A program made the position numbers and the translations under genes. Shown piece after piece: positions 1,597 to 17,819 of a DNA stretch of 17,819 nucleotides. Position 1 is the first letter of the stretch. Each line of letters begins with the position of its first letter. This DNA comes from a virus (lineage: Duplodnaviria > Heunggongvirae > Uroviricota > Caudoviricetes). The DNA lies in the IMG/VR virus record IMGVR_UViG_2541047853_000002; one strand, written 5' to 3'. The notes beneath the pieces are model-generated. The model was given only the letters and a program-made list of their open reading frames with translations. It ran no database searches and was not told the DNA's origin.

Positions 1597-4168
1597 ACCG
1601 GTAGGCGATCTGGTCGTTGATTTAAGTCTGGATGCGGCCAGATTTGACGAGCAGATGGCCAGAGTCAGGCGTCATTTTTCCGGTACGGAAACTGATGCGA
1701 AAAAAACAGCGGCAGTCGTTGAACAGTCGCTGAGCCGACAGGCGCTGGCTGCACAGAAAGCGGGGATTTCCGTCGGGCAGTATAAAGCCGCCATGCGTAT
1801 GCTGCCTGCACAGTTCACCGACGTGGCCACGCAGCTTGCAGGCGGGCAAAGTCCGTGGCTGATCCTGCTGCAACAGGGTGGTCAGGTTAAGGACTCCTTC
1901 GGCGGGATGATCCCCATGTTCAGGGGGCTTGCCGGTGCGATCACCCTGCCGATGGTGGGGGCCACCTCGCTGGCGGTGGCGACCGGTGCGCTGGCGTATG
2001 CCTGGTATCAGGGCAACTCAACCCTGTCCGATTTCAACAAAACGCTGGTCCTTTCCGGCAATCAGGCGGGACTGACGGCAGATCGTATTCTGGCCCTGTC
2101 CAGAGCCGGGCAGGCGGCAGGGCTGACGTTTAACCAGACCAGCGAGTCACTGACGGCGCTGGTGAATGCCGGTGTGCGTGGTGGTGAGCAGTTTGAGGCG
2201 ATCAGCCAGAGTGTGGCGCGTTTCTCCTCTGCATCCGGCGTGGAGGTGGACAAGGTCGCTGAAGCCTTCGGGAAGCTGACCACAGACCCGACGTCGGGAC
2301 TGACAGCGATGGCACGTCAGTTCCGTAACGTGACGGCGGAGCAGATTGCGTATGTTGCTCAGTTGCAGCGTTCCGGAGATGAAGCCGGGGCATTGCAGGC
2401 GGCGAACGAGGCCGCAACGAAAGGGTTTGATGACCAGACCCGCCGCCTGAAAGAGAACATGGGCACGCTGGAGACCTGGGCAGACAGGACAGCACGGGCA
2501 TTCAAATCCATGTGGGATTCGGTGCTGGATATTGGTCGCCCGGACACTGCCCAGGGAATGCTGGAGAAAGCAGAAAAGGCTTTTGATGAGGCGGACAAAA
2601 AATGGCAGTGGTATCAGAGTCGGAGCCACCGGCGCGGTAAAACCTCAGCATTTCTTGCCAATCTCCGGGGAGCATGGGAGGACAGAGCGAATGCGCAACT
2701 TGGGCTTTCAGCCGCCACGTTGCAGGCCGATCTTGAAAAGGCCAGAGAGATGGCAGCAAAGGACTGGGCCGAGTCTGAGGCATCACGGCTGAAATATACC
2801 GAAGAGGCGCAGAAGGCTTACGAACGGCTGCAGACGCCGCTGGAGAAATATACCGCCCGTCAGGAAGAACTGAACAAGGCACTGAAAGACGGGAAAATCC
2901 TGCAGGCGGATTACAACACGCTGATGGCGGCGGCGAAAAAGGATTATGAAGCGACGCTGAAAAAGCCGAAACAGTCCGGCGTGAAGGTGTCTGCGGGCGA
3001 TCGTCAGGAAGACAGTGCTCATGCTGCCCTGCTGACGCTTCAGGCTGAACTCCGGACGCTGGAGAAGCATGCCGGAGCAAATGAGAAAATCAGCCAGCAG
3101 CGCCGGGATTTGTGGAAGGCGGAGAGTCAGTTCGCGGTACTGGAGGAGGCGGCGCAACGTCGCCAGCTGTCTGCACAGGAGAAATCCCTGCTGGCGCATA
3201 AAGATGAGACGCTGGAGTACAAACGCCAGCTGGCTGCACTTGGCGACAAGGTTACGTATCAGGAGCGCCTGAACGCGCTGGCGCAGCAGGCGGATAAATT
3301 CGCACAGCAGCAACGGGCAAAACGGGCCGCCATTGATGCGAAAAGCCGGGGGCTGACTGACCGGCAGGCAGAACGGGAAGCCACGGAACAGCGCCTGAAG
3401 GAACAGTATGGCGATAATCCGCTGGCGCTGAATAACGTCATGTCAGAGCAGAAAAAGACCTGGGCGGCTGAAGACCAGCTTCGCGGGAACTGGATGGCAG
3501 GCCTGAAGTCCGGCTGGAGTGAGTGGGAAGAGAGCGCCACGGACAGTATGTCGCAGGTAAAAAGTGCAGCCACGCAGACCTTTGATGGTATTGCACAGAA
3601 TATGGCGGCGATGCTGACCGGCAGTGAGCAGAACTGGCGCAGCTTCACCCGTTCCGTGCTGTCCATGATGACAGAAATTCTGCTTAAGCAGGCAATGGTG
3701 GGGATTGTCGGGAGTATCGGCAGCGCCATTGGCGGGGCTGTTGGTGGCGGCGCATCCGCGTCAGGCGGTACAGCCATTCAGGCCGCTGCGGCGAAATTCC
3801 ATTTTGCAACCGGAGGATTTACGGGAACCGGCGGCAAATATGAGCCAGCGGGGATTGTTCACCGTGGTGAGTTTGTCTTCACGAAGGAGGCAACCAGCCG
3901 GATTGGCGTGGGGAATCTTTACCGGCTGATGCGCGGCTATGCCACCGGCGGTTATGTCGGTACACCGGGCAGCATGGCAGACAGCCGGTCGCAGGCGTCC
4001 GGGACGTTTGAGCAGAATAACCATGTGGTGATTAACAACGACGGCACGAACGGGCAGATAGGGCCACAGGCGCTGAAGGCTGTTTATGACGTAGCCCGTA
4101 AGGCGGCAATGGATGTTGTGACCGGGCAGATGCGCGATGGTGGCCTGTTCTCCGGAGGTGGACGATGA
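1589..4168 (+). CDS. H: Tail tape measure protein H (859 aa)
   Basis: Large ORF right after G-T. Long alpha-helical, Ala/Gln/Lys/Glu-rich middle, and a Gly/Ala-rich hydrophobic C-terminal segment (LLKQAMVGIVGSIGSAIGGAVGGGASASGG). Size is close to lambda gpH (about 853 aa). RBS 'ggagg' before the ATG. Confidence 0.92.
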   Translation: MAEPVGDLVVDLSLDAARFDEQMARVRRHFSGTETDAKKTAAVVEQSLSRQALAAQKAGISVGQYKAAMRMLPAQFTDVATQLAGGQSPWLILLQQGGQVKDSFGGMIPMFRGLAGAITLPMVGATSLAVATGALAYAWYQGNSTLSDFNKTLVLSGNQAGLTADRILALSRAGQAAGLTFNQTSESLTALVNAGVRGGEQFEAISQSVARFSSASGVEVDKVAEAFGKLTTDPTSGLTAMARQFRNVTAEQIAYVAQLQRSGDEAGALQAANEAATKGFDDQTRRLKENMGTLETWADRTARAFKSMWDSVLDIGRPDTAQGMLEKAEKAFDEADKKWQWYQSRSHRRGKTSAFLANLRGAWEDRANAQLGLSAATLQADLEKAREMAAKDWAESEASRLKYTEEAQKAYERLQTPLEKYTARQEELNKALKDGKILQADYNTLMAAAKKDYEATLKKPKQSGVKVSAGDRQEDSAHAALLTLQAELRTLEKHAGANEKISQQRRDLWKAESQFAVLEEAAQRRQLSAQEKSLLAHKDETLEYKRQLAALGDKVTYQERLNALAQQADKFAQQQRAKRAAIDAKSRGLTDRQAEREATEQRLKEQYGDNPLALNNVMSEQKKTWAAEDQLRGNWMAGLKSGWSEWEESATDSMSQVKSAATQTFDGIAQNMAAMLTGSEQNWRSFTRSVLSMMTEILLKQAMVGIVGSIGSAIGGAVGGGASASGGTAIQAAAAKFHFATGGFTGTGGKYEPAGIVHRGEFVFTKEATSRIGVGNLYRLMRGYATGGYVGTPGSMADSRSQASGTFEQNNHVVINNDGTNGQIGPQALKAVYDVARKAAMDVVTGQMRDGGLFSGGGR

Positions 4169-5197: not shown

Positions 5198-5941
5198 ATG
5201 ACACAGACAGAATCAGCGATTCTGGCGCACGCCCGGCGATGTGCGCCAGCGGAGTCGTGCGGCTTCGTGGTAAGCACGCCGGAGGGGGAAAGATATTTTC
5301 CCTGCGTGAATATCTCCGGTGAGCCGGAGGCGTATTTCCGTATGTCGCCGGAAGACTGGCTGCAGGCAGAAATGCAGGGTGAGATTGTGGCGCTGGTCCA
5401 CAGCCACCCCGGTGGTCTGCCCTGGCTGAGTGAGGCCGACCGGCGGCTGCAGGTGCAGAGTGATTTGCCGTGGTGGCTGGTCTGCCGGGGGACGATTCAT
5501 AAGTTCCGCTGTGTGCCGCATCTCACCGGGCGGCGCTTTGAGCACGGTGTGACGGACTGTTACACACTGTTCCGGGATGCTTATCATCTGGCGGGGATTG
5601 AGATGCCGGACTTTTATCGTGAGGATGACTGGTGGCGTAACGGCCAGAATCTCTATCTGGATAATCTGGAGGCGACGGGGCTGTATCAGGTGCCGTTGTC
5701 AGCGGCACAGCCGGGCGATGTGCTGCTGTGCTGTTTTGGTTCATCAGTGCCGAATCACGCCGCAATTTACTGCGGCGACGGCGAGCTGCTGCACCATATT
5801 CCTGAACAACTGAGCAAACGAGAGAGGTACACCGACAAATGGCAGCGACGCACACACTCCCTCTGGCGTCACCGGGCATGGCGCGCATCTGCCTTTACGG
5901 GGATTTACAACGATTTGGTCGCCGCATCGACCTTCGTGTGA
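5198..5941 (+). CDS. K: Tail tip assembly protein K (JAMM/MPN+ plus NlpC/P60 domains); 247 aa from the first ATG, alternative internal start at 5342 gives 199 aa
   Basis: JAMM-type motif H-S-H-x7-S-x2-D (VALVHSHPGGLPWLSEAD) with an upstream Glu (PAESCG) that exists only in the longer form. C-terminal NlpC/P60-like Cys/His (GVTDCYTLF ... NHAAIY). The 3' end overlaps I out of frame. Confidence 0.85.
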   Translation: MTQTESAILAHARRCAPAESCGFVVSTPEGERYFPCVNISGEPEAYFRMSPEDWLQAEMQGEIVALVHSHPGGLPWLSEADRRLQVQSDLPWWLVCRGTIHKFRCVPHLTGRRFEHGVTDCYTLFRDAYHLAGIEMPDFYREDDWWRNGQNLYLDNLEATGLYQVPLSAAQPGDVLLCCFGSSVPNHAAIYCGDGELLHHIPEQLSKRERYTDKWQRRTHSLWRHRAWRASAFTGIYNDLVAASTFV

Positions 5942-6570: not shown

Positions 6571-9500
6571 ATGGGTAAAGGCAGCAGTAAGGGGCATACC
6601 CCGCGCGAAGCGAAGGACAACCTGAAGTCCACGCAGCTGCTGAGTGTGATCGATGCCATCAGCGAAGGGCCGGTTGAAGGTCCGGTGGATGGATTAAAAA
6701 GCGTGCTGCTGAACAGTACGCCGGTGCTGGACACTGAGGGGAATACCAACATCTCCGGTGTCACGGTGGTGTTCCGTGCCGGTGAGCAGGAGCAGACACC
6801 GCCGGAGGGGTTTGAATCCTCCGGCTCCGAGACGGTGCTGGGTACGGAAGTGAAATATGACACGCCGATCACCCGCACCATTACGTCTGCAAACATCGAC
6901 CGTCTGCGCTTTACCTTCGGCGTGCAGGCACTGGTGGAAACCACCTCAAAGGGGGACCGGAATCCGTCGGAAGTCCGCCTGCTGGTTCAGATCCAGCGTA
7001 ATGGTGGCTGGGTGACGGAAAAAGACATCACCATTAAGGGCAAAACCACCTCGCAGTATCTGGCCTCGGTGGTGGTGGGTAACCTGCCGCCGCGCCCGTT
7101 CAATATACGGATGCGCAGGATGACGCCGGACAGCACCACAGACCAGCTGCAGAACAAAACGCTCTGGTCGTCATACACCGAAATCATCGATGTGAAACAG
7201 TGCTACCCGAACACGGCACTGGTCGGCGTGCAGGTGGATTCGGAGCAGTTCGGCAGCCAGCAGGTGAGCCGTAATTATCATCTGCGCGGGCGCATTCTGC
7301 AGGTGCCGTCGAACTATAACCCGCAGACGCGGCAATACAGCGGTATCTGGGACGGAACGTTTAAGCCAGCATACAGCAACAACATGGCCTGGTGTCTGTG
7401 GGATATGCTGACCCATCCGCGCTACGGCATGGGGAAACGTCTTGGTGCGGCGGATGTGGACAAATGGGCGCTGTATGTCATCGGCCAGCATTGCGATCAG
7501 TCGGTGCCGGACGGTTTTGGCGGCACAGAGCCGCGCATCACCTGTAATGCGTACCTGACCACACAGCGCAAGGCGTGGGATGTGCTCAGTGATTTCTGCT
7601 CTGCGATGCGCTGTATGCCGGTATGGAACGGGCAGACGCTGACGTTCGTGCAGGACCGACCGTCGGATAAGGTGTGGACCTATAACCGCAGTAATGTGGT
7701 GATGCCGGATGATGGTGCGCCGTTCCGCTACAGCTTCAGCGCCCTGAAGGACCGCCATAATGCCGTTGAGGTGAACTGGATTGACCCGAATAACGGCTGG
7801 GAGACGGCGACAGAGCTTGTGGAGGACACGCAGGCCATTGCCCGTTACGGTCGTAACGTCACGAAGATGGATGCTTTTGGCTGTACCAGCCGGGGGCAGG
7901 CACACCGCGCCGGGCTGTGGCTGATTAAAACAGAACTGCTGGAAACGCAGACCGTGGACTTCAGCGTGGGTGCCGAAGGGCTTCGCCATGTACCGGGCGA
8001 TGTCATTGAAATCTGCGATGATGACTATGCCGGTATCCGCACCGGCGGGCGCGTGCTGGCGGTAAACAGCCAGACCCGGACGCTGACGCTCGACCGTGAA
8101 ATCACGCTGCCATCTTCCGGCACCACGCTGATAAGCCTGGTTGACGGGCAGGGGAGTCCGGTCAGCGTGGAGGTTCAGTCCGTCACCGACGGCGTGAAGG
8201 TGAAAGTGAGCCGTGTTCCTGACGGCGTTGCTGAATACAGCGTATGGGGGCTGAAGCTGTCGACGTTGCGCCAGCGCCTGTTCCGCTGCGTGAGTATCCG
8301 TGAGAACGACGACGGCACGTATGCCATCACCGCCGTGCAGCATGTACCGGAAAAAGAGGCCATCGTGGATAACGGGGCGCACTTTGACGGCGACCAGAGC
8401 GGCACGGTAAATGGTGTCACGCCGCCAGCGGTGCAGCACCTGACCGCAGAAGTCACCGCAGACAGCGGGGAATACCAGGTGCTGGCGCGCTGGGACACGC
8501 CGAAGGTGGTGAAGGGCGTGAGCTTCCTGCTTCGCCTGACCGTGGCAGCGGATGACGGCCGTGAGCGGCTGGTCAGCACGGCCCGGACGACGGAAACCAC
8601 TTACCGCTTCACACAACTGGCTCTGGGGAACTACAGGCTGACAGTCCGGGCAGTAAATGCGTGGGGGCAGCAGGGCGATCCGGCGTCGGTATCGTTCCGG
8701 ATTGCCGCACCGGCAGCGCCGTCGCGGATTGAGCTGACGCCGGGCTATTTTCAGATAACCGCCACGCCGCATCTTGCGGTTTATGACCCGACGGTACAGT
8801 TTGAGTTCTGGTTCTCGGAAAAACGGATTGCGGATATCAGGCAGGTTGAAACCAGCGCGCGTTATCTTGGTACGGCACTGTACTGGATAGCCGCCAGTAT
8901 CAATATCAAACCGGGCCATGATTATTATTTTTACGTTCGCAGTGTGAACACCGTTGGCAAATCGGCATTCGTGGAGGCTGTCGGTCAGCCGAGTGATGAT
9001 GCATCAGGCTATCTGGATTTTTTCAAAGGCGAGATAGGGAAAACCCATCTGGCTCAGGAGCTGTGGACGCAGATTGATAACGGTCAGCTTGCGCCTGACC
9101 TGACTGAAATCAGGACGTCCATAACGGATGTCAGCAATGAAATAACACAGACCGTCAATAAGAAACTGGAAGACCAGAGTGCGGCAATCCAGCAGATACA
9201 GAAGGTTCAGGTTGATACAAATAATAACCTGAACAGCATGTGGGCAGTGAAGCTGCAGCAGATGCAGGACGGACGCCTTTATATTGCGGGTATCGGTGCC
9301 GGTATTGAGAACACCCCTGACGGCATGCAGAGTCAGGTGCTGCTGGCAGCAGACAGGATTGCGATGATTAATCCTGCGAATGGCAACACAAAGCCGATGT
9401 TTGTTGGTCAGGGCGATCAGATATTCATGAATGAAGTGTTCCTGAAACGCCTGACGGCCCCCACCATTACCAGCGGTGGCAGTCCTCCGGTATTTTCCCT

Positions 9501-10068
9501 GACATCAGACGGAAAGCTGACCGCTAAAAATGCGGATATCAGTGGTAGTGTGAATGCGAACTCAGGAACGCTCAACAATGTCACGATTAACCAGAACTGT
9601 ACGATTAAGGGCATGCTGGAGGCGACCCAGGTCAGAGGGGATTTCGTTAAAGCTGTATCAAAAGCCTTCCCGAAAAAAGTCGGTACGTGGGGTAACACGG
9701 AAACACCAAACGGTACGGTTACAGTCACCATCAGCGATGATCATAACTTTGACCGCCAGATTATTATTCCGCCCATTATTTTTAACGGTATAGCGTATGA
9801 CGATCCGGGGAGCGGAAATAACCCAGGAGGCACGCGATACACGGGTTATGGTTTTGAAGTTCGCAAAAACGGCGTATTAATCGCATCCAGAGAAACTAAA
9901 GGGGCCATTCCCGGTAGTTACAGTGCAGTTATTGATATGCCTAGTGGTGGTGGTAGCGTCACTCTGGAGTTTAAGATTTTCCAGAAAGGCAATCAGGGGG
10001 CAGGCAATATCACCGACTGTACGGTGATTGTGACCAAAAAAGCCGCTTCCGGCATCAGTATTCGTTGA
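6571..10068 (+). CDS. J: Central tail fibre / host specificity protein J (1165 aa)
   Basis: Very large ORF after I with RBS 'gagga'. Fibronectin type III-like segment (about 8400-8700: ...[27 protein letters not shown]). Size is similar to lambda gpJ (about 1132 aa). The C-terminal 300 aa or so has lower GC than the rest. Confidence 0.93.
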
Positions 10069-10089
10069 AATTGTTATAACCCATATAAG

Positions 10090-10113
10090 GGCACCAGAAA
10101 TGGTGCCTTTTTT
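10090..10113 (+). terminator. Rho-independent terminator downstream of J
   Basis: 'ggcacca' - gaaa - 'tggtgcc' stem-loop followed by 'ttttttatt'. Confidence 0.6.
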
Positions 10114-10137
10114 ATTGCAGAAAAGCGAGAGGTAATT

Positions 10138-10737
10138 ATGCGTAAACTTTATGCCGCCATTTTGTCCGCAGCCATTTGTCTGGCCGTATCCGGTGCGCCT
10201 GCATGGGCATCTGAACATCAGTCCACGCTGAGCGCGGGGTATCTTCATGCCTCGACGAACGTTCCCGGCAGCGATGATCTTAACGGGATTAACGTGAAAT
10301 ACCGTTATGAGTTTACGGACACACTGGGGCTGGTGACGTCATTCAGCTATGCAGGAGACAAGAATCGCCAGCTTACCCGTTACAGCGATACCCGCTGGCA
10401 TGAAGATTCCGTTCGTAACCGCTGGTTCAGCGTGATGGCGGGGCCGTCTGTGCGCGTGAATGAATGGTTCAGCGCGTATGCGATGGCGGGTATGGCTTAC
10501 AGCCGTGTGTCGACTTTCTCCGGGGATTATCTCCGCGTAACTGACAACAAGGGGAAAACGCACGACGTGCTGACCGGAAGTGATGACGGTCGCCACAGCA
10601 ACACGTCTCTGGCGTGGGGGGCTGGCATGCAGTTTAACCCGACCGAATCCGTGGCCATTGATATTGCTTATGAAGGTTCCGGCAGTGGTGACTGGCGCAC
10701 TGACGGTTTCATCGTGGGTGTCGGTTATAAATTCTGA
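10138..10737 (+). CDS. lom: Lom outer-membrane beta-barrel protein (Ail/Lom/PagC/OmpX family), 199 aa
   Basis: Signal peptide ([24 protein letters not shown]) and a C-terminal aromatic residue (…GVGYKF) typical of outer-membrane beta-barrels. Sits between J and stf as in lambda. Own RBS 'gagagg', and flanked by terminators on both sides (moron-like). Confidence 0.88.
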
Positions 10738-10764
10738 TTAGCCAGGTAACACAGTGTTATGACA

Positions 10765-10790
10765 GCCCGCCGGTTCAGGCGGGTTTTTTT
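10765..10790 (+). terminator. Rho-independent terminator downstream of lom
   Basis: 'gcccgcc' - ggttca - 'ggcgggt' stem-loop followed by a run of seven T. Confidence 0.65.
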
Positions 10791-10801
10791 GTGGGGTGAA
10801 T

Positions 10802-13800
10802 ATGGCAGTAAAGATTTCAGGTGTACTGAAAGACGGCACAGGAAAACCGGTACAGAACTGCACAATCCAGCTGAAAGCAAAACGTAACAGCACCACGGTG
10901 GTGGTGAACACGCTGGCCTCAGAAAATCCGGATGAAGCCGGGCGTTACAGCATGGACGTTGAGTACGGTCAGTACAGCGTTATTCTGTTGGTGGAGGGAT
11001 TCCCGCCGTCACATGCCGGGACCATCACCGTGTATGAAGATTCCCGACCCGGTACGCTGAATGATTTTCTCGGTGCCATGACGGAGGATGATGCCCGTCC
11101 TGAGGCACTGCGCCGTTTTGAACTGATGGTGGAAGAGGTGGCGCGTAACGCGTCCGCGGTGGCACAGAACACGGCAGCCGCGAAGAAGTCAGCCAGCGAT
11201 GCCAGCACATCAGCCCGTGAGGCGGCAACCCATGCGACTGATGCTGCAGGCTCAGCACGCGCAGCCAGCACGTCAGCCGGACAGGCCGCGTCGTCGGCTC
11301 AGTCAGCATCTTCCAGCGCAGGAACGGCATCAACAAAGGCCAGTGAAGCATCGAAAAGTGCTGCTGCTGCAGAGTCCTCAAAAAGCGCGGCAGCTACCAG
11401 TGCCGGTGCGGCGAAAACGTCAGAAACGAATGCGGCAGCGTCACAACAATCAGCAGCCACTTCTGCATCCGCCGCGACCACGAAGGCGTCAGAAGCAGCC
11501 ACCTCAGCCCGGGATGCGGCGGCCTCAAAAGAGGCAGCGAAATCATCAGAAACGAACGCATCATCAAGCGCCAGTAGTGCCGCTTCCTCGGCAACGGCGG
11601 CAGGCAATTCCGCGAAGGCGGCAAAGACGTCTGAGACAAACGCCAGGTCTTCTGAAACGGCAGCGGGACAGAGCGCCTCGGCTGCGGCAGGCTCAAAAAC
11701 AGCGGCTGCGTCGTCTGCCAGTGCCGCGTCAACAAGTGCCGGGCAGGCCTCAGCCAGTGCCACCGCCGCCGGAAAATCGGCAGAAAGCGCCGCATCGTCT
11801 GCTTCAACAGCCACAACGAAGGCTGGCGAAGCCACTGAACAGGCCAGCGCAGCAGCAAGGTCTGCTTCCGCAGCGAAGACATCCGAGACGAACGCGAAAG
11901 CGTCGGAAACCAGCGCAGAATCCTCAAAAACGGCTGCCGCATCGTCCGCCAGTTCGGCGGCGTCATCGGCATCATCGGCGTCTGCTTCAAAAGATGAGGC
12001 GACCAGACAAGCGTCCGCAGCGAAGGGCAGCGCCACGACGGCATCCACGAAGGCGACAGAGGCAGCTGGCAGTGCGACGGCGGCAGCACAGAGCAAAAGT
12101 ACGGCGGAATCCGCGGCAACGCGCGCCGAGACAGCGGCAAAACGGGCAGAGGATATTGCATCCGCCGTGGCGCTTGAGGATGCAAGTACGACGAAAAAGG
12201 GGATAGTACAGCTCAGCAGTGCGACCAACAGTACGTCTGAAACGCTGGCGGCAACGCCAAAGGCAGTAAAATCAGCCTATGACAATGCAGAGAAACGTCT
12301 GCAGAAAGACCAGAACGGCGCTGATATACCCGATAAGGGACGCTTCCTGAACAACATTAACGCGGTCAGTAAAACAGACTTTGCTGATAAGCGTGGTATG
12401 CGTTATGTGCGGGTTAACGCTCCTGCAGGTGCAACATCTGGAAAATATTACCCTGTTGTTGTTATGCGTTCTGCTGGCTCAGTAAGCGAACTGGCATCAA
12501 GGGTCATTATCACCACGGCAACGCGAACCGCAGGCGATCCGATGAATAACTGCGAGTTTAACGGATTTGTTATGCCTGGTGGCTGGACTGACAGGGGGCG
12601 TTATGCTTATGGAATGTTCTGGCAATATCAAAACAATGAACGAGCCATCCACTCAATAATGATGAGTAATAAGGGCGATGATTTGCGCTCTGTGTTCTAT
12701 GTTGATGGCGCTGCTTTCCCTGTTTTTGCGTTTATCGAAGATGGCCTGTCAATATCCGCACCTGGTGCTGATCTCGTTGTTAATGATACGACCTATAAGT
12801 TTGGGGCAACAAATCCGGCGACTGAATGTATCGCGGCGGACGTTATCCTTGATTTTAAGAGTGGGCGTGGTTTTTATGAGTCTCATTCGTTAATCGTTAA
12901 CGATAACTTGTCGTGCAAAAAACTTTTTGCCACAGACGAAATTGTAGCGCGTGGTGGTAATCAGATTCGAATGATAGGTGGGGAGTATGGGGCATTATGG
13001 CGTAATGATGGCGCTAAAACTTACCTGCTGCTTACCAATCAAGGTGATGTTTATGGTGGCTGGAATACATTAAGACCGTTTGCTATTGATAACGCAACCG
13101 GCGAACTGGTTATTGGAACCAAACTGTCCGCAAGTCTGAACGGTAATGCATTAACAGCAACAAAGCTGCAAACGCCAAGACGGGTTTCTGGTGTTGAGTT
13201 TGATGGTTCCAAAGATATTACTTTAACCGCCGCGCATGTGGCTGCTTTTGCCAGAAGGGCAACGGATACATATGCCGATGCGGATGGTGGCGTTCCCTGG
13301 AATGCCGAATCAGGCGCTTATAATGTCACCCGCTCTGGCGACAGCTATATTCTGGTTAACTTCTATACCGGAGTCGGAAGTTGCCGGACCTTGCAGATGA
13401 AGGCGCATTACAGAAATGGTGGTCTGTTCTACCGTTCTTCAAGAGACGGTTATGGTTTTGAGGATGACTGGGCAGAAGTTTATACCTCGAAAAATCTTCC
13501 ACCAGAAAGCTACCCAGTCGGCGCACCAATCCCGTGGCCATCAGATACCGTTCCGTCTGGTTATGCCCTGATGCAGGGGCAGACTTTTGACAAATCTGCT
13601 TACCCGAAACTTGCAGCCGCTTATCCGTCAGGCGTGATCCCTGATATGCGTGGCTGGACGATTAAGGGCAAACCTGCCAGTGGTCGGGCCGTATTGTCTC
13701 AGGAACAGGACGGCATTAAATCGCATACCCACAGCGCCAGCGCATCCAGTACAGATTTGGGGACGAAAACCACATCGTCGTTTGATTACGGCACTAAATC

Positions 13801-14200
13801 CACGAATAACACTGGTGCGCATACCCATAGTTTAAGTGGCAGCACGAATGCAGCTGGTAATCACAGCCATAGAGATGGCCGTCGATTTAACCCCAGTGTT
13901 TTTAAAGATACTTATCAATATGGTTATACAAGCTCAGGTCAAAATACCTGGGGTGTACAAGGCTCAGTAGGTATGTCTACGGGGTGGTTAGCGAATACCA
14001 GTACAGATGGTAATCATAGCCATTCACTGTCCGGCACAGCAGCATCTGCAGGTGCACACGCGCATACTGTCGGTATTGGTGCTCATACGCACTCCGTTGC
14101 GATTGGTTCACATGGACACACCATCACCGTTAACGCTGCTGGTAACGCGGAAAACACCGTCAAAAACATCGCATTTAACTATATTGTGAGGCTTGCATAA
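10802..14200 (+). CDS. stf: Side tail fibre protein Stf (about 1132 aa from ATG 10802; the ORF track starts 2 codons upstream at GTG 10796)
   Basis: N-terminus [26 protein letters not shown] is typical of the lambdoid Stf tail-attachment domain. Followed by a long Ala/Ser/Thr-rich repetitive shaft, a conserved fibre motif ([27 protein letters not shown]), and a His-rich HxH-repeat C-terminus. RBS 'ggggtg' before ATG 10802. Stop overlaps the tfa start (TAATG). Confidence 0.9.
11150..12210 (+). repeat. Ala/Ser/Thr-rich low-complexity coding repeat in the stf shaft (GC about 70%)
   Basis: Recurring peptide units such as AAKTSETNA (four copies with small variations) and [10 protein letters not shown] tracts. 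This codon-biased GC-rich repeat produces long spurious ORFs in the other frames. Confidence 0.75.
13724..14125 (+). other. His-rich HxH repeat region of the Stf C-terminus (putative metal-coordinating fibre tip)
   Basis: Motifs [46 protein letters not shown] read from the translation. They resemble the HxH iron-binding repeats of the T4 gp37 distal tip. Confidence 0.55.
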
Positions 14201-14775
14201 TGGCATTCAGAATGAGTGAACAACCACGGACCATAAAAATTTATAATCTGCTGGCCGGAACTAATGAATTTATTGGTGAAGGTGACGCATATATTCCGCC
14301 TCATACAGGTCTGCCAGCAAACAGTACCGATATTGCACCACCAGATATTCCTGCTGGCTTTGTGGCTGTTTTCAACAGTGATGAGGCATCGTGGCATCTC
14401 GTTGAAGATCATCAGGGTAAAACGGTTTATGACGTAGCTTCCGGCGACGCGTTATTTATTTCTGAACTCGGTCCGTTACCGAAAAATGTTACCTGGTTAT
14501 CGCCGGAAGGGGAGTTTCAGAAGTGGAACGGCACAGCCTGGGTGAAGGATACGGAAGCAGAAAAACTGTTCCGGATCCGGGAGGCGGAAGAAACAAAAAA
14601 CAACCTGATGCAGGTAGCCAGTGAGCATATTGCGCCGCTTCAGGATGCTGCAGATCTGGAAATTGCAACGGAGGAAGAAATCTCGTTGCTGGAAGCATGG
14701 AAAAAGTATCGGGTATTGCTGAACCGTGTTGATACGTCAACTGCACAGGATATTGAATGGCCAGCACTGCCGTAG
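14200..14775 (+). CDS. tfa: Tail fibre assembly protein Tfa (191 aa)
   Basis: ORF directly coupled to stf. The C-terminal motif [36 protein letters not shown] is characteristic of the Tfa/gp38-like assembly chaperones of lambdoid and P2-like phages. Confidence 0.9.
14620..14742 (+). repeat. tfa 3' repeat, copy 1 (direct repeat partner of 17391-17513)
   Basis: About 123 bp with roughly 88% identity to 17391-17513 in the same orientation (aligned by eye, about 15 mismatches). Confidence 0.8.
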
Positions 14776-14872
14776 GGTAAAACATATAAATTCTATAATT
14801 AGATGTATCTTTCCATTTACGGCAAGGAAGGGGGCTTGGAAGACGTAAAGCATCTCACACCGAGATTATTTT

Positions 14873-15463
14873 TTATATGTCAGGTGTCTGAAGTTTTGCT
14901 TTGGCTCTTAAAATGGTTTGCCGCGAGGTTTTGAATTCCCGGGCAATGGCACTTATACTTACACCTGACTTAATTCGTTCGAATACCACCTGTTTCTGTT
15001 CTTCATTTAACACAGGTGGTCGACCAAAACGTTTCCCTGCGCCGCGGGCTCTTACTATCCCGGAATGAGTGCGTTCAAGTAAAAGGTCTCGTTCAAATTC
15101 AGCGACTGCTGAAATTACGTGCATCATCATTTTTCCTGTTGGACTGGTCAGGTCAATGCCCCCCAATGCTAAGCAATGCACTCTGATACCTGTTTCGGTC
15201 AGTTGTTCCACTGTTTTCCTGATATCCATTGCATTACAACCAAGGCGATCCAGTTTTGTCACAATCAATTGATCACCACATTTCAGGCGAGCAAGCAACC
15301 GGTTAAAACCAGGACGCTCACTGGTTGCTGCTGAGCCGCTAATGTGTTCTTCGATTATTTGCTGAGGTTTGATTTTAAAACCTGCACTTTCGATTTCCCG
15401 GCGTTGATTTTCGATGGTCTGATCCAGCGTTGATATCCGACAGTAAGCAAAAATTCGAGACAT
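14873..15463 (-). CDS. pin: Serine recombinase of the DNA-invertase family (Pin/Gin/Hin-like; PinR/PinQ-type), 196 aa
   Basis: N-terminal catalytic motif ([12 protein letters not shown], Ser nucleophile), the resolvase/invertase catalytic domain, and a C-terminal helix-turn-helix ([21 protein letters not shown]). Convergent with tfa. I recall this as closely matching the Rac/Qin prophage invertases of E. coli, but I could not verify by search. Confidence 0.88.
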
Positions 15464-15600
15464 AGTGAGACTCTATACGAAATTGGTGTTCATATCATAA
15501 TGCATCTCAGAAAATAATTTTGATTATTTTTGTGCATATTTGTATGTACACGTTCGAAAATAAACGAATGCGTATGCAACCCCGTAATTTTGGTGAGACC

Positions 15601-15614
15601 CAAAATCGATTTTG
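15601..15614. promoter_or_regulatory. Perfect 14-bp palindrome CAAAATCGATTTTG, nested with a second inverted repeat, in the pin upstream region
   Basis: Read directly. The second inverted repeat is AATTTTGG (15586-15593) against CCAAAAT (15599-15605). Located about 140 bp upstream of the pin start codon. Function unknown. Confidence 0.25.
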
Positions 15615-15779
15615 TGAAAAATGGCTTTAACTCGGTTTGTTTTTCGAGTTCCGGGCGGACTCAAGGAAGAAGAATAGTGTTGCGTGTTATTTTAACCAGA
15701 TTTCAAGTTGTTTGATCGTGGAAAAGTGGAGCAAAATGTTGTTAAAGTGGAAAAATGATAAAAAAGTAAGTTTATTATA

Positions 15780-16013
15780 TTACATTTTACCATTTAAATT
15801 TTGGTTGTCTTTAAGAACTGATATCGCTGTTTGTAATAATTCTTTGTTATCCAGCCATGATTTTTTCTTTATGTTTCCTTCAATGTAATCAAGCAATGTT
15901 CTGGTATTGATAGGTCTTCCCTGTTTTGCTACTTCCACTACAGCATCCCCTAGGATAATTCTTACTTCAGGAAGCTGCGCAGGGAACCACTTTAGGGTGT
16001 CTTTTGATTTCAT
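15780..16013 (-). CDS. ydfK: Small prophage protein resembling YdfK/YnaE (cold-shock-induced in E. coli Rac/Qin); 77 aa from ATG 16013, 88 aa if ATG 16046 is used
   Basis: The translation MKSKDTLKWFPAQLPEVRIILGDAVVEVAKQGRPINTRTLLDYIEGNIKKK... matches my recollection of YdfK/YnaE. Lies just upstream of pin on the same strand, as in Rac and Qin. Identity is from memory, not a search. Confidence 0.6.
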   Translation of the reverse strand: MKSKDTLKWFPAQLPEVRIILGDAVVEVAKQGRPINTRTLLDYIEGNIKKKSWLDNKELLQTAISVLKDNQNLNGKM

Positions 16014-16510
16014 GAAGATATTCCTTAAAATATTATTGATTTTCATTGCGATATTGTATGTCTGATTCAGGATATGTTGACTTATACATCGGTTTTGTCT
16101 GGGTTATTGGATATGCCAATCCCTAATTTTATTAGGGCATGACTAAAAATGCTGAATATGATAAGGAGAGAAGTGATTATCAGTATGCTGTTCATATAGC
16201 CTCGAATTAGTAATGTGTTATATATGATATAGTTGACAATTTTTATCCTGGGTGTTCTTAAAGTTCGTAGATAAACATTGTCGTTTCAGGTATACAGGAA
16301 TGCTAACAGGTGGCGGCAAAAATCAGGCGGTTTATGGCGCAAGCTGAAGTGGCAACTGCAAACTATCTTATGCAGAGACTCTACACGGATTGGGTTTAAA
16401 AGTATACATAGATAACAGTTTTTATCTGAAGAAGAAAAATATCAAGGTGATATAGCCTATATGCCTATGATGCGGAGGAATGAATGTGATGGGAGTGATG
16501 TATCTGAATA

Positions 16511-16555
16511 GTTGAAAAACCGCAGACACGCCTTATGCAAGAACGTGCTGCGGTT
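16511..16555 (-). terminator. Rho-independent terminator downstream of the methyltransferase gene (minus strand)
   Basis: Inverted repeat 'aaccgcagacacg' (16518-16530) against 'cgtgctgcggtt' (16544-16555). On the minus strand the stem is followed by 'tttttcaac'. It begins 6 nt after the methyltransferase stop. Confidence 0.5.
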
Positions 16556-16560
16556 GGATG

Positions 16561-17229
16561 CTATTTTTTCCCTGAAGCGGAAAACATTACTACAGTACCT
16601 TGAACCTTGGTTTTAACATTCTCGAAATGCTCTGAGAGTATATGTGTTAAGCCTTCTTCGGAATCTTTTGTGTTTGAAAAGATGCCTTTCTGATTGTAAA
16701 TGCGCATCAGTTTTTGACCGAAGCTATTGTGCACAACTCCATCGCCAAGAATTGTGGCTCCGTATAGAGTTCCATCGTCAGTTAAGGCCTGCGCCGCATT
16801 GCGTATTACACAGCTTTTTGTAGATATATTTCCAGGCAGGCAGTGAAGAAGGTAAAACATGGAAATGGAATCAAATTGACCATGTAACGCCGCGGGATAA
16901 GGTTCAAAAACATCATGGTTAATTTTATGTTTAATTTTTGATTCCCCAGCCCTTGTAGATGCCGCGTTCAGGCTAGCTTCGTTCAAATCCATTAAAGATA
17001 TCAGACTACTCTCAGGTACGTGAGTAAGGTAAAACCCAGTTCCAACACCAATATCCAGATGGTTGTTACCTAAATGTTCCAGAAAGTGTGGAAGAAGGTG
17101 TTCCTTTGTAGGACATCCCCATGCAAGCCGATTTGATACTCCCAAAACCCACCAGTCATAAAGCTTTAGGGTAAGTGGTGTGTAAATTTTAGCCCCATCA
17201 TCTGTGTTTTTTTTCATTAATTTCACCAT
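16561..17229 (-). CDS. Class I SAM-dependent methyltransferase (222 aa), target unknown
   Basis: Rossmann-fold motif I (LDIGVGTGFY), an acidic residue after beta-2 (LMDLNE), and a motif-II-like HDVF. No (D/N/S)PP(Y/F/W) motif, so it is probably not a DNA amino-methyltransferase. Low-GC gene. It may correspond to the ybcY-type methyltransferase found near tfa remnants in the E. coli DLP12 prophage (recollection only). Confidence 0.75.
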   Translation of the reverse strand: MVKLMKKNTDDGAKIYTPLTLKLYDWWVLGVSNRLAWGCPTKEHLLPHFLEHLGNNHLDIGVGTGFYLTHVPESSLISLMDLNEASLNAASTRAGESKIKHKINHDVFEPYPAALHGQFDSISMFYLLHCLPGNISTKSCVIRNAAQALTDDGTLYGATILGDGVVHNSFGQKLMRIYNQKGIFSNTKDSEEGLTHILSEHFENVKTKVQGTVVMFSASGKK

Positions 17230-17285
17230 GTTATAGTTTTATTTGTGAATTAAATCAATTATGGCGATGAATTACAAGGGGTTAA

Positions 17286-17591
17286 ATGCTGCCGCAGCAT
17301 AGCGATATTGAAATAGCCTGGTATGCTTCGATACAGCAGGAGCCGAATGGCTGGAAGACCGTCACCACACAGTTCTACATCCAGGAATTCAGTGAGTATA
17401 TTGCGCCACTGCAGGATGCTGTAGATCTGGAAATCGCAACGGAGGAAGAAAGATCGTTGCTGGAGGCATGGAATAAATATCGGGTATTGTTGAATCGAGT
17501 TGATACATCAGTAGCTCTGGGTATGAAGCTGTTTGTAACTCATGTTACAGTAACAGTCATTACTATCTCGAAGGTGCAAAATGTATATTGA
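17286..17591 (+). pseudogene. Truncated, degenerate tail-fibre-assembly (tfa-like) remnant
   Basis: The 101-aa ORF contains [40 protein letters not shown], about 90% identical to the Tfa C-terminus at 14620-14742. The N-terminal 38 aa and the tail after VDTS do not match Tfa, and it is far shorter than the 191-aa Tfa. Confidence 0.6.
17391..17513 (+). repeat. tfa 3' repeat, copy 2 (direct repeat partner of 14620-14742)
   Basis: See copy 1. Same orientation, roughly 88% nucleotide identity. Confidence 0.8.
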
Positions 17592-17758
17592 TTTGATATT
17601 TTATAAATTTACTTCGAATCTGGCACGTCAACTTTTGATTAAAGTAATATCAGTTTTCGGCGAAAAAAGGACCGTGTACATGAGACGATTTCATACAATA
17701 ATAACAAAAATATGAATATGCTCCCTAGACTGGCCCCCTGAATCTCCAGACAACCAGT

Positions 17759-17776
17759 ATCACTTAAATAAGTGAT
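17759..17776. promoter_or_regulatory. Operator-like perfect palindrome ATCACTTA-AA-TAAGTGAT upstream of a gene start at the window edge
   Basis: Read directly: 8-bp arms with a 2-bp spacer. Followed by two ACTAGT copies (17786-17791 and 17798-17803), an RBS-like 'ggag', and an ATG at 17817-17819 at the very end of the window. Confidence 0.3.
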
Positions 17777-17819
17777 AGTCTTAATACTAGTTTTTAGACT
17801 AGTCATTGGAGAACAGATG

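Follow-up and report, generated by a model that had tools for sequence, protein, structure and literature searches.

How did two copies of the same gene end come to flank a group of accessory genes in a phage tail region? This question is raised by IMG/VR virus record IMGVR_UViG_2541047853_000002 (Caudoviricetes), analysed here as one stretch of 17,819 nt (the window), in which a repeat search detected a single direct-repeat family consisting of 14608-14753 and 17379-17524 (146 nt; start-to-start spacing, 2771). All the genes between the copies, namely pin, ydfK, ynaM, and a methyltransferase gene, are on the minus strand. We consider it likely that the repeats are two copies of the sequence coding for the conserved C-terminal part of the tail fibre assembly protein (chaperone) Tfa, juxtaposed by recombination between different lambdoid phages. 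The prophage is lambdoid, intact, and of the DLP12 type, and the window represents its tail end; positions 8101-17725 are 99.1% identical to the prophage adjoining ompT/envY/nfrA in strain STN0717-20, and this site is that of the cryptic prophage DLP12 in K-12.

The repeat and its two tfa copies

By direct count, the two copies are identical at 122/146 nt (83.6%), and pairwise alignment of their core (14620-14741 versus 17391-17512) gives 106/122 (86.9%) in direct orientation, with a longest perfect run of 16 nt. A first-pass annotation, made from the sequence alone, had described repeats of about 123 bp and about 88% identity in the same orientation, one at the 3' end of an intact tfa and the other inside a degenerate tfa remnant. 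The measured values agree closely with this description, and the similarity neither falls below 70% nor shrinks to a short motif. Because the left copy matches the near-identical right copy of L001, a relative with 99.1% overall identity to the window, with a BLAST E value of 7e-40, the similarity is far beyond chance. Among the 40 core codons, 27 are identical, nine differ synonymously, and four differ non-synonymously; the mostly synonymous differences indicate that the copies diverged as working genes in different phages, rather than by decay after an in-place duplication. In ZJ3920, the corresponding copies are 89% identical over 227 bp, a stretch that begins in mid-tfa and takes in the stop codon, a 36-bp segment, and a hairpin; since it continues past the tfa stop, it reflects a duplication at the DNA level rather than convergence of a protein motif.

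The left copy lies in frame within tfa (14200-14775, plus strand), an intact gene for a 191-residue protein of the Rac/Qin allele, and ends 22-34 nt ahead of the tfa stop codon, inside an Rfam RF02111 match (14543-14741). The start of tfa overlaps the stop of the side tail fibre gene stf, and the product matches Pfam PF02413 (Caudo_TAP; E = 1.3e-42) over profile positions 2-130 of 131 and phrog_105 (E = 7e-97). The gene is thus a full-length open reading frame (ORF) directly after stf with a PF02413 match reaching the C-terminus, as in a lambdoid tfa. The first-pass annotation had viewed conserved tfa 3' ends as recombination linkers, which appears overstated; the C-terminal domain of Tfa is reportedly conserved, and this would explain the conservation of the tfa 3' end, so that selection for a linker need not apply.

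The right copy (17379-17524, plus strand) is an internal fragment of a different, tfaX-type tfa allele, and lies in a 101-residue ORF (17286-17591, plus strand) that starts at the same position as K-12 tfaX, belongs to phrog_2341 (E = 5e-56), and is an annotated gene in the phages Turner and ev243. The ORF product matches PF02413 over profile positions 75-121 of 131 only (E = 9e-18); in relatives, the Prokaryotic Genome Annotation Pipeline (PGAP) labels the remnant as 'tail fiber assembly protein, incomplete, missing N-terminus'. Its translation departs from Tfa after VDTS, the last 11 C-terminal codons of Tfa being replaced by unrelated sequence; K-12 tfaX is shortened by a TGG-to-TGA change and the WWCOL-236 version is frameshifted. 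Because the stretch 16520-17515 is 97.3% identical to that of K-12 DLP12 running from the hairpin downstream of ybcY into tfaX, the right repeat is the orthologue of tfaX. It has the features of a tfaX-type pseudogene, containing only an internal part of the C-terminal domain and lying just upstream of, and divergent from, a ybcY-type methyltransferase gene.

The two edges of the remnant differ in character. At the left joint (17373-17379), phage Ayreon shares the preceding spacer up to 17372 and then diverges, and similarity to tfa begins at ~17379. At the right edge, the similarity fades after 17510-17524, and relatives break at 17510-17517; downstream of it, ZJ3920 has a complete tfa end, K-12 has a diverged tfa end, and the window and O157 have residual similarity only, with an IS66-family insertion at 17517 in O157. 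The right edge is a mosaic boundary, and the left edge a novel joint. Sequence of the tfa 3' end is found to the left of the methyltransferase gene in every variant examined; even with fibre genes of other types, as in WWCOL-236, MB53 (bio site), and Ayreon, a left tfa fragment of 100-135 nt is retained.

Two modules and a variable slot

The first-pass annotation had treated the repeats as the bounds of a single 2.9-kb cassette. Comparison with K-12 prophages divides this interval: window positions 14015-16557 are 98.9% identical to Rac (tfaR-pinR-ynaE-ynaM) and 14004-16569 are 98.4% identical to Qin, whereas from 16517-16520 onward the window matches pin-less prophages of the DLP12 type, with 97-99% identity over the hairpin, methyltransferase gene, spacer, and tfa fragment (tfa'). 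The two homologies overlap at the hairpin (16520-16553). The cassette consists of two modules with separate histories, and the boundaries of the swap among relatives lie at 14762 and 16520 rather than at the second repeat.

The left boundary of the exchanged part is sharp. In four of four relatives (K-12 DLP12, O157:H7 FRIK804, ZJ3920, and WWCOL-236), the homology ends exactly at 14762 (boundary, 14762-14763), 13 nt ahead of the tfa stop, and resumes at 16517-16520. This pattern defines a variable slot bounded by the conserved end of tfa (14762) and the base of the hairpin (16520), the second repeat being no boundary at all. The contents of the slot were counted in 5426 complete E. coli genomes using 301-nt junction probes (coverage ≥80%). 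The most frequent layout, tfa followed by 36 bp, the hairpin, and the methyltransferase gene, was found in 3066 genomes and is seen in K-12, ZJ3920, WWCOL-236, and MB53, with ev243 and 2G7b as phages of this short type; the pin-ydfK-ynaM content of the window (a 1.76-kb segment, with ynaM followed by the hairpin and methyltransferase gene) was found in 316, and an operon of a manganese catalase with yciE/yciF/yciG-like genes (O157 type) in 343. These counts make the layout of the window a minority form. The comparison with related prophages proposed in the first-pass annotation thus yielded alternative contents, three in all.

In O157 FRIK804, the cargo (L003 2483-5290) occupies the slot equivalent to window 14763-16519. 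Its yciEFG-like genes are 73.9% identical to the E. coli chromosomal yciEFG, which adjoin a sister prophage at the ompW site; with only 73.9% identity, a recent local capture of the host yciEFG is ruled out.

The ~1-kb block composed of the hairpin, methyltransferase gene, spacer, and tfa fragment is present in at least 3700 of the 5426 genomes and in several viable phages, always just downstream of a tfa 3' end. The second repeat is an older scar travelling with the methyltransferase gene; that it is old and nearly ubiquitous had escaped the first-pass annotation. The locus also shows the marks of a mosaic or 'moron' slot, namely breaks at shared coordinates, alternative contents, and crossovers in the flanking homology, the last being observed in ompW-site prophages and not in the lineage of the window.

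Proposed history and alternative readings

The above comparisons suggest the following history. The duplication may have arisen once, when an illegitimate joint at 17373-17379 linked the spacer upstream of the methyltransferase gene in one phage to mid-tfa sequence from another. The block would then have spread among phages with different integrases through homologous recombination at the tfa-derived flank and the hairpin, presumably catalysed by RecA or a phage Red/Rad52-type recombinase. The layout of the window would finally result from a crossover between a Rac-like and a DLP12-like phage within ~40 bp of hairpin homology. Exchange of this kind has an experimental precedent, lambda having recombined with both Rac and Qin at ~2e-6 per phage by way of stf-tfa homology of 88-96% identity (PMC3945230). 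In this reading, the repeats have no function of their own, and those of the window lineage are too diverged for appreciable recombination. The recombination-junction reading of the first-pass annotation is borne out to this extent, in that the repeats are tfa 3' coding sequence marking joints between phages.

Recombination within the repeat itself can be traced in sister prophages at the ompW site, where, in 20 genomes as against roughly 360 occupied alleles, tfa runs straight into the downstream DUF4376 remnant and the methyltransferase gene is missing. In all eight of the eight empty alleles examined, the sequence is of the left-copy type up to position 5217 and of the right-copy type from 5257 (ZJ3920 coordinates; 27 informative sites), and the switch interval coincides with the only long identical run (39 bp) within the ZJ3920-type tfa repeat (227 bp, 89%). 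Such a switch is the pattern that a crossover in the repeat produces, either by loss of the block or by its acquisition from a donor.

Several points weigh against the proposed recombinational origin. A single illegitimate founding event is what we infer, and no phage with the intact parent arrangement, in which the methyltransferase gene has an uninterrupted upstream neighbour, was found; a tblastn search against phages returned the same block and Ayreon only. The genome counts are based on megablast coverage thresholds and not on curated alignments. Whether the block was gained or lost at the ompW site is unreadable from present-day sequences, and the 20 empty alleles could be ancestral recipients; moreover, the eight alleles share one switch interval, so that independent events are not demonstrated. 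The deletion product expected from the window's own repeats, represented by two synthetic junctions, matched none of the 5426 genomes at ≥80% coverage. Finally, the 'DinI'-family fragment that PGAP places in the spacer of some genomes was unconfirmed, as Pfam (E up to 10) and NCBIfam gave nothing.

A more functional version of the preferred history can be conceived, in which the dead tfa fragment and the hairpin serve as portable homology arms that move the block and the slot cargo into any tfa-bearing lambdoid phage, the scar perhaps being retained because the cargo spreads better with it, and the 101-residue ORF possibly encoding a working stand-alone protein of the Tfa C-terminal domain. 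Such arms would explain why prophages integrated at argU/ompT, at ompW, and at bio all have the block; we regard this version as unlikely.

Somewhat less probable still is the reading that the repeats are active deletion substrates in the window, regularly removing the 2.77-kb pin-ydfK-ynaM-methyltransferase segment. In its favour, alleles with the block and the 20 without it are set apart by the longer ompW-site repeat, within which the switch falls, and phage Rad52-type recombinases tolerate ~12% divergence (PMC3945230). However, the lack of any junction match contrasts with 310-316 genomes that keep the full arrangement, and the sister lineage has a 39-bp identical run and an additional copy of the hairpin, neither of which is present in the window. 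The window repeats are 84-87% identical, and their 16-nt run is shorter than the ~23-27 nt that efficient RecA recombination in E. coli reportedly needs. The repeat-mediated deletion suggested in the first-pass annotation is therefore supported as a crossover in the repeat of the ompW-site prophages, with no direction given, and finds no support in the lineage of the window.

It is improbable, to a further degree, that the 101-residue ORF encodes a functional stand-alone protein of the Tfa C-terminal domain that is under selection. The window, Turner, and ev243 all have the ORF in intact form; it has a PHROG family of its own and is preceded by AAGGGG four bases ahead of its ATG; furthermore, no full-length tfa is annotated upstream of it in phages of the ev243 and WWCOL-236 types. 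On the other hand, the premature TGA of K-12 tfaX and the frameshift of WWCOL-236 described above argue against such a protein, as do the replacement of the last 11 Tfa codons and the pseudogene call by PGAP. The product would also be devoid of the variable N-terminal domain of Tfa, which is said to bind the fibre.

There is little to recommend the idea that the repeated unit is a small-RNA gene, RF02111 (IS009), conserved in two copies for an RNA function, even though both copies match the whole 199-nt model and IS009 is listed among phage-associated small RNAs (bioRxiv 10.64898/2026.05.13.724894). In a cmscan search, the left match (14543-14741) scored 220.9 bits and the right match (17309-17512) 107.7 bits, the latter being below the gathering score of 117. 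In K-12, all the matches above the threshold lie within the reading frames of tfaD, tfaR, and tfaQ on the coding strand. The mostly synonymous differences between the copies, and the many modelled pairs that the right copy breaks without compensation, also speak against an RNA function. The analysis turned up no evidence of such a function. In effect, the model describes the repeated 3' sequence of tfa, and IS009 matches in prophages probably represent coding sequence and not small-RNA genes.

We give hardly any credence to the right copy being the leftover of a tail-fibre segment inverted by Pin, comparable to Mu G, P1 C, or e14 P, with tfa' once being the alternative chaperone gene: a serine invertase gene does adjoin tfa, with a second tfa-like sequence nearby, and phage invertases have been proposed to drive tail fibre gene exchange (PMC3945230), but the copies are direct and not inverted, tfa' lies beyond pin on the same strand and has no neighbouring stf fragment, in 3066 genomes the methyltransferase-tfa' block is not accompanied by pin, K-12 Rac and Qin have pin without tfa', and crossover sites were not found. 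For the last point, sites of the pix/gix type (core AAACCNNGGTTT, up to two mismatches) gave four matches in the window versus 7.5 expected, none of them paired, and the pattern derived from e14 gave no match in the window; the e14 sites themselves, used as a positive control, were recovered by the same repeat tool. One core match with a single mismatch (16602-16613, in the methyltransferase gene) has a poor right half and no partner, and was judged to be due to chance. Among the hallmarks of Din-family segments, the locus has the adjacent serine invertase gene, and neither inverted crossover sites nor an opposite-strand set of stf C-terminus and tfa. Inversion or excision mediated by Pin was rejected, the crossover sites being absent from the window. 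A transposable element or integron-type cassette was likewise rejected, as the repeat search of the window found no terminal inverted repeats, the 146-nt copies at 84% identity are not short exact duplications, and the only recombinase is an invertase without sites.

Neighbouring genes and known systems

Returning to the slot and block in their mosaic setting, the slot of the window begins with pin (14873-15463, minus strand), which encodes a 196-residue serine DNA invertase with the Pfam domains Resolvase and HTH_7 and a match to phrog_125 (DNA invertase). It is followed by a homologue of ydfK/ynaE (15780-16046, minus strand; phrog_2718), recognized as an ORF, annotated as 'cold shock protein YdfK' in L001, and assigned a start at ~16013 (77 residues) by PGAP, and by the ynaM/ynfT gene for a small protein of 37 residues (16082-16195, minus strand; NCBIfam NF041477, E = 1.2e-17), which was not listed in the first-pass annotation.

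The conserved hairpin (16520-16553) at the right boundary of the slot was found by folding; the terminator scan missed it because its loop exceeds 8 nt. Its minimum free energy is −24.5 kcal/mol on the plus strand (z = −4.9) and −22.3 kcal/mol on the minus strand (z = −3.9), and a UUUUU run that follows it on the minus strand identifies it as the terminator of the methyltransferase gene. The hairpin also occurs near the right ends of Rac and Qin, and twice in ZJ3920. This one hairpin of ~34 nt thus recurs at the edges of modules, in Rac and Qin as well as in prophages of the DLP12 type and at the ompW site (L006 ~8732-8769, L007 ~3529-3566, and L004 5292-5328 and 6341-6382). The hairpin of Rac and Qin looks like an orphan terminator of a vanished methyltransferase gene.

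The methyltransferase gene (16561-17229, minus strand), a homologue of the K-12 pseudogene ybcY, encodes a class I S-adenosylmethionine-dependent enzyme of 222 residues (Pfam Methyltransf_12/23/25/11; phrog_2132, E = 3e-156). No NCBIfam family scored above its cut-off, and the matches in the PDB, to small-molecule O-methyltransferases such as UbiG and juvenile-hormone methyltransferases, were weak (E ~1e-3). PADLOC matches pointing to an anti-phage defence role of pin or the methyltransferase were insignificant (E = 0.009 and 7e-4). The spacer upstream of the gene (17230-17372) presumably holds its promoter, with a promoter-like site on the minus strand (17285-17258) at the consensus level only. 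In K-12, a site for RpoD-holoenzyme and H-NS is reported in the ybcY/tfaX spacer (PMC3946193). Overall, the putative regulatory signals of the cargo consist of the strong hairpin with its U-run and of promoter-like sites at the consensus level.

Ayreon shares the spacer over 17256-17372, with no intact ORF in it, and its reverse complement (L022 3920-4108) retains the hairpin and the spacer together with the final 36 nt of the methyltransferase gene, the 659-bp gene body being gone; a viable phage has thus lost the inner part of this gene through a clean deletion. Strain DE17 has an extremely reduced DLP12 remnant (L008 3295-5232) made up of fragments of the integrase gene and tfa plus an intact methyltransferase gene, adjoining ompT. 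There, the right tfa remnant has been deleted, and the methyltransferase gene has outlasted the remainder of the prophage.

To the left of tfa lies stf (10796-14200, plus strand), an ORF encoding a side tail fibre protein of 1134 residues (Pfam phage_tail_N, Gp34_trimer, and Collar; annotated as stfR in L001). It is 97.9% identical to K-12 stfR, excluding 13840-14015, which has no Rac match. This 3' tip was matched in none of Rac, Qin, and Turner, although its flanks are 87-98% identical, and it lies among three 27-nt repeats (13802-14023) encoding motifs of the ...GNHSH type. The region 13840-14015 is a separate mosaic patch within the presumed receptor-binding end.

The layout of the window is shared by the viable phage Turner, which is 99.1% identical over 14015-17725 and has the gene order lom-stf-tfa-invertase-...-methyltransferase-101-residue ORF-alpha/beta hydrolase-ompT-tRNA-like sequence-integrase. 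In both Turner (L012 7275-9899) and ev243 (L013 5255-7879), the tfa remnant is separated from the integrase gene by the ompT and alpha/beta hydrolase genes, and because ompT is thus present in sequenced phage genomes, OmpT is a cargo of viable phages and not of the K-12 cryptic prophage alone. At the end of the window, outside the repeat structure, is the left end of an IS3-family insertion sequence (17726-17819, plus strand). Strain SRY149 has an element of this family whose end matches it with 97.9% identity. The insertion sequence begins with TAGACTGGCCCCCTGAATCTCC in the window, and the SRY149 copy sits within ydfK. An insertion at this place, with the tfa remnant on one side and the hydrolase gene on the other, is found in none of the relatives examined; the top relatives listed align to the window only as far as 17725, and three with 100% coverage reach it through an insertion-sequence copy in ydfK.

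The locus illustrates clearly, and in countable form, the reshuffling of accessory genes beside the host-range genes of temperate phages, with three cargo sets in one slot after tfa and a duplicate of a gene end marking the crossover point. It leaves the current understanding unchanged. Its practical value lies in annotation: tfaX-type ORFs and IS009 matches in prophages should be read as tfa sequence. The phenomenon is an already known one, ordinary, widespread, and annotated in K-12, and the sequence is catalogued as PF02413, IS009, and PHROG 2341. In the literature on tfaX and ybcY, we found no paper treating the repeat structure, the slot boundaries, or the presence/absence polymorphism, and neither ybcY nor pinR appears in the text of De Paepe et al. 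2014 (PMC3945230), who did not examine this locus.

Among known systems, the invertible segments Mu G/Gin, P1 C/Cin, and e14 P/Pin are similar in having an invertase gene beside stf-tfa and a second tfa-like sequence, and differ in that the repeats of the window are direct, with neither crossover sites nor an alternative stf C-terminus. Another counterpart is provided by lambdoid genome mosaicism, the modular theory of which is said to go back to Botstein and the moron concept to Hendrix and colleagues. Like the mosaic boundaries and 'morons' of lambdoid phages, the locus shows abrupt identity transitions at shared coordinates, alternative cargo with a presumed terminator in each case, and crossovers in short diverged homology; it differs in that one homology flank is a dead duplicate of a gene end travelling with the cargo. 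Rac (stfR-tfaR-pinR-ynaE-ynaM) and Qin resemble the window from the stf 3' end through the hairpin (16520-16557) at the above identities of 98.9% and 98.4%, including the orphan invertase after tfa, whereas in both the prophage end follows the hairpin, and there is neither a methyltransferase gene nor a second tfa copy. The tfaD-ybcY-tfaX region of K-12 DLP12 (b0561-b0563) shares with the window the site next to ompT, the gene order, and the orientation, and window 14346-14762 is 93.8% identical to tfaD; in contrast, it has 36 bp in the slot, so that ybcY directly follows tfaD, ybcY is a pseudogene, tfaX has a premature stop, and the downstream gene is appY instead of the alpha/beta hydrolase gene of the window. 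Altogether, the structure joins an intact version of K-12 tfaD-ybcY-tfaX to the tfa-pin-ynaE-ynaM module of Rac and Qin, and represents a textbook lambdoid mosaic joint.

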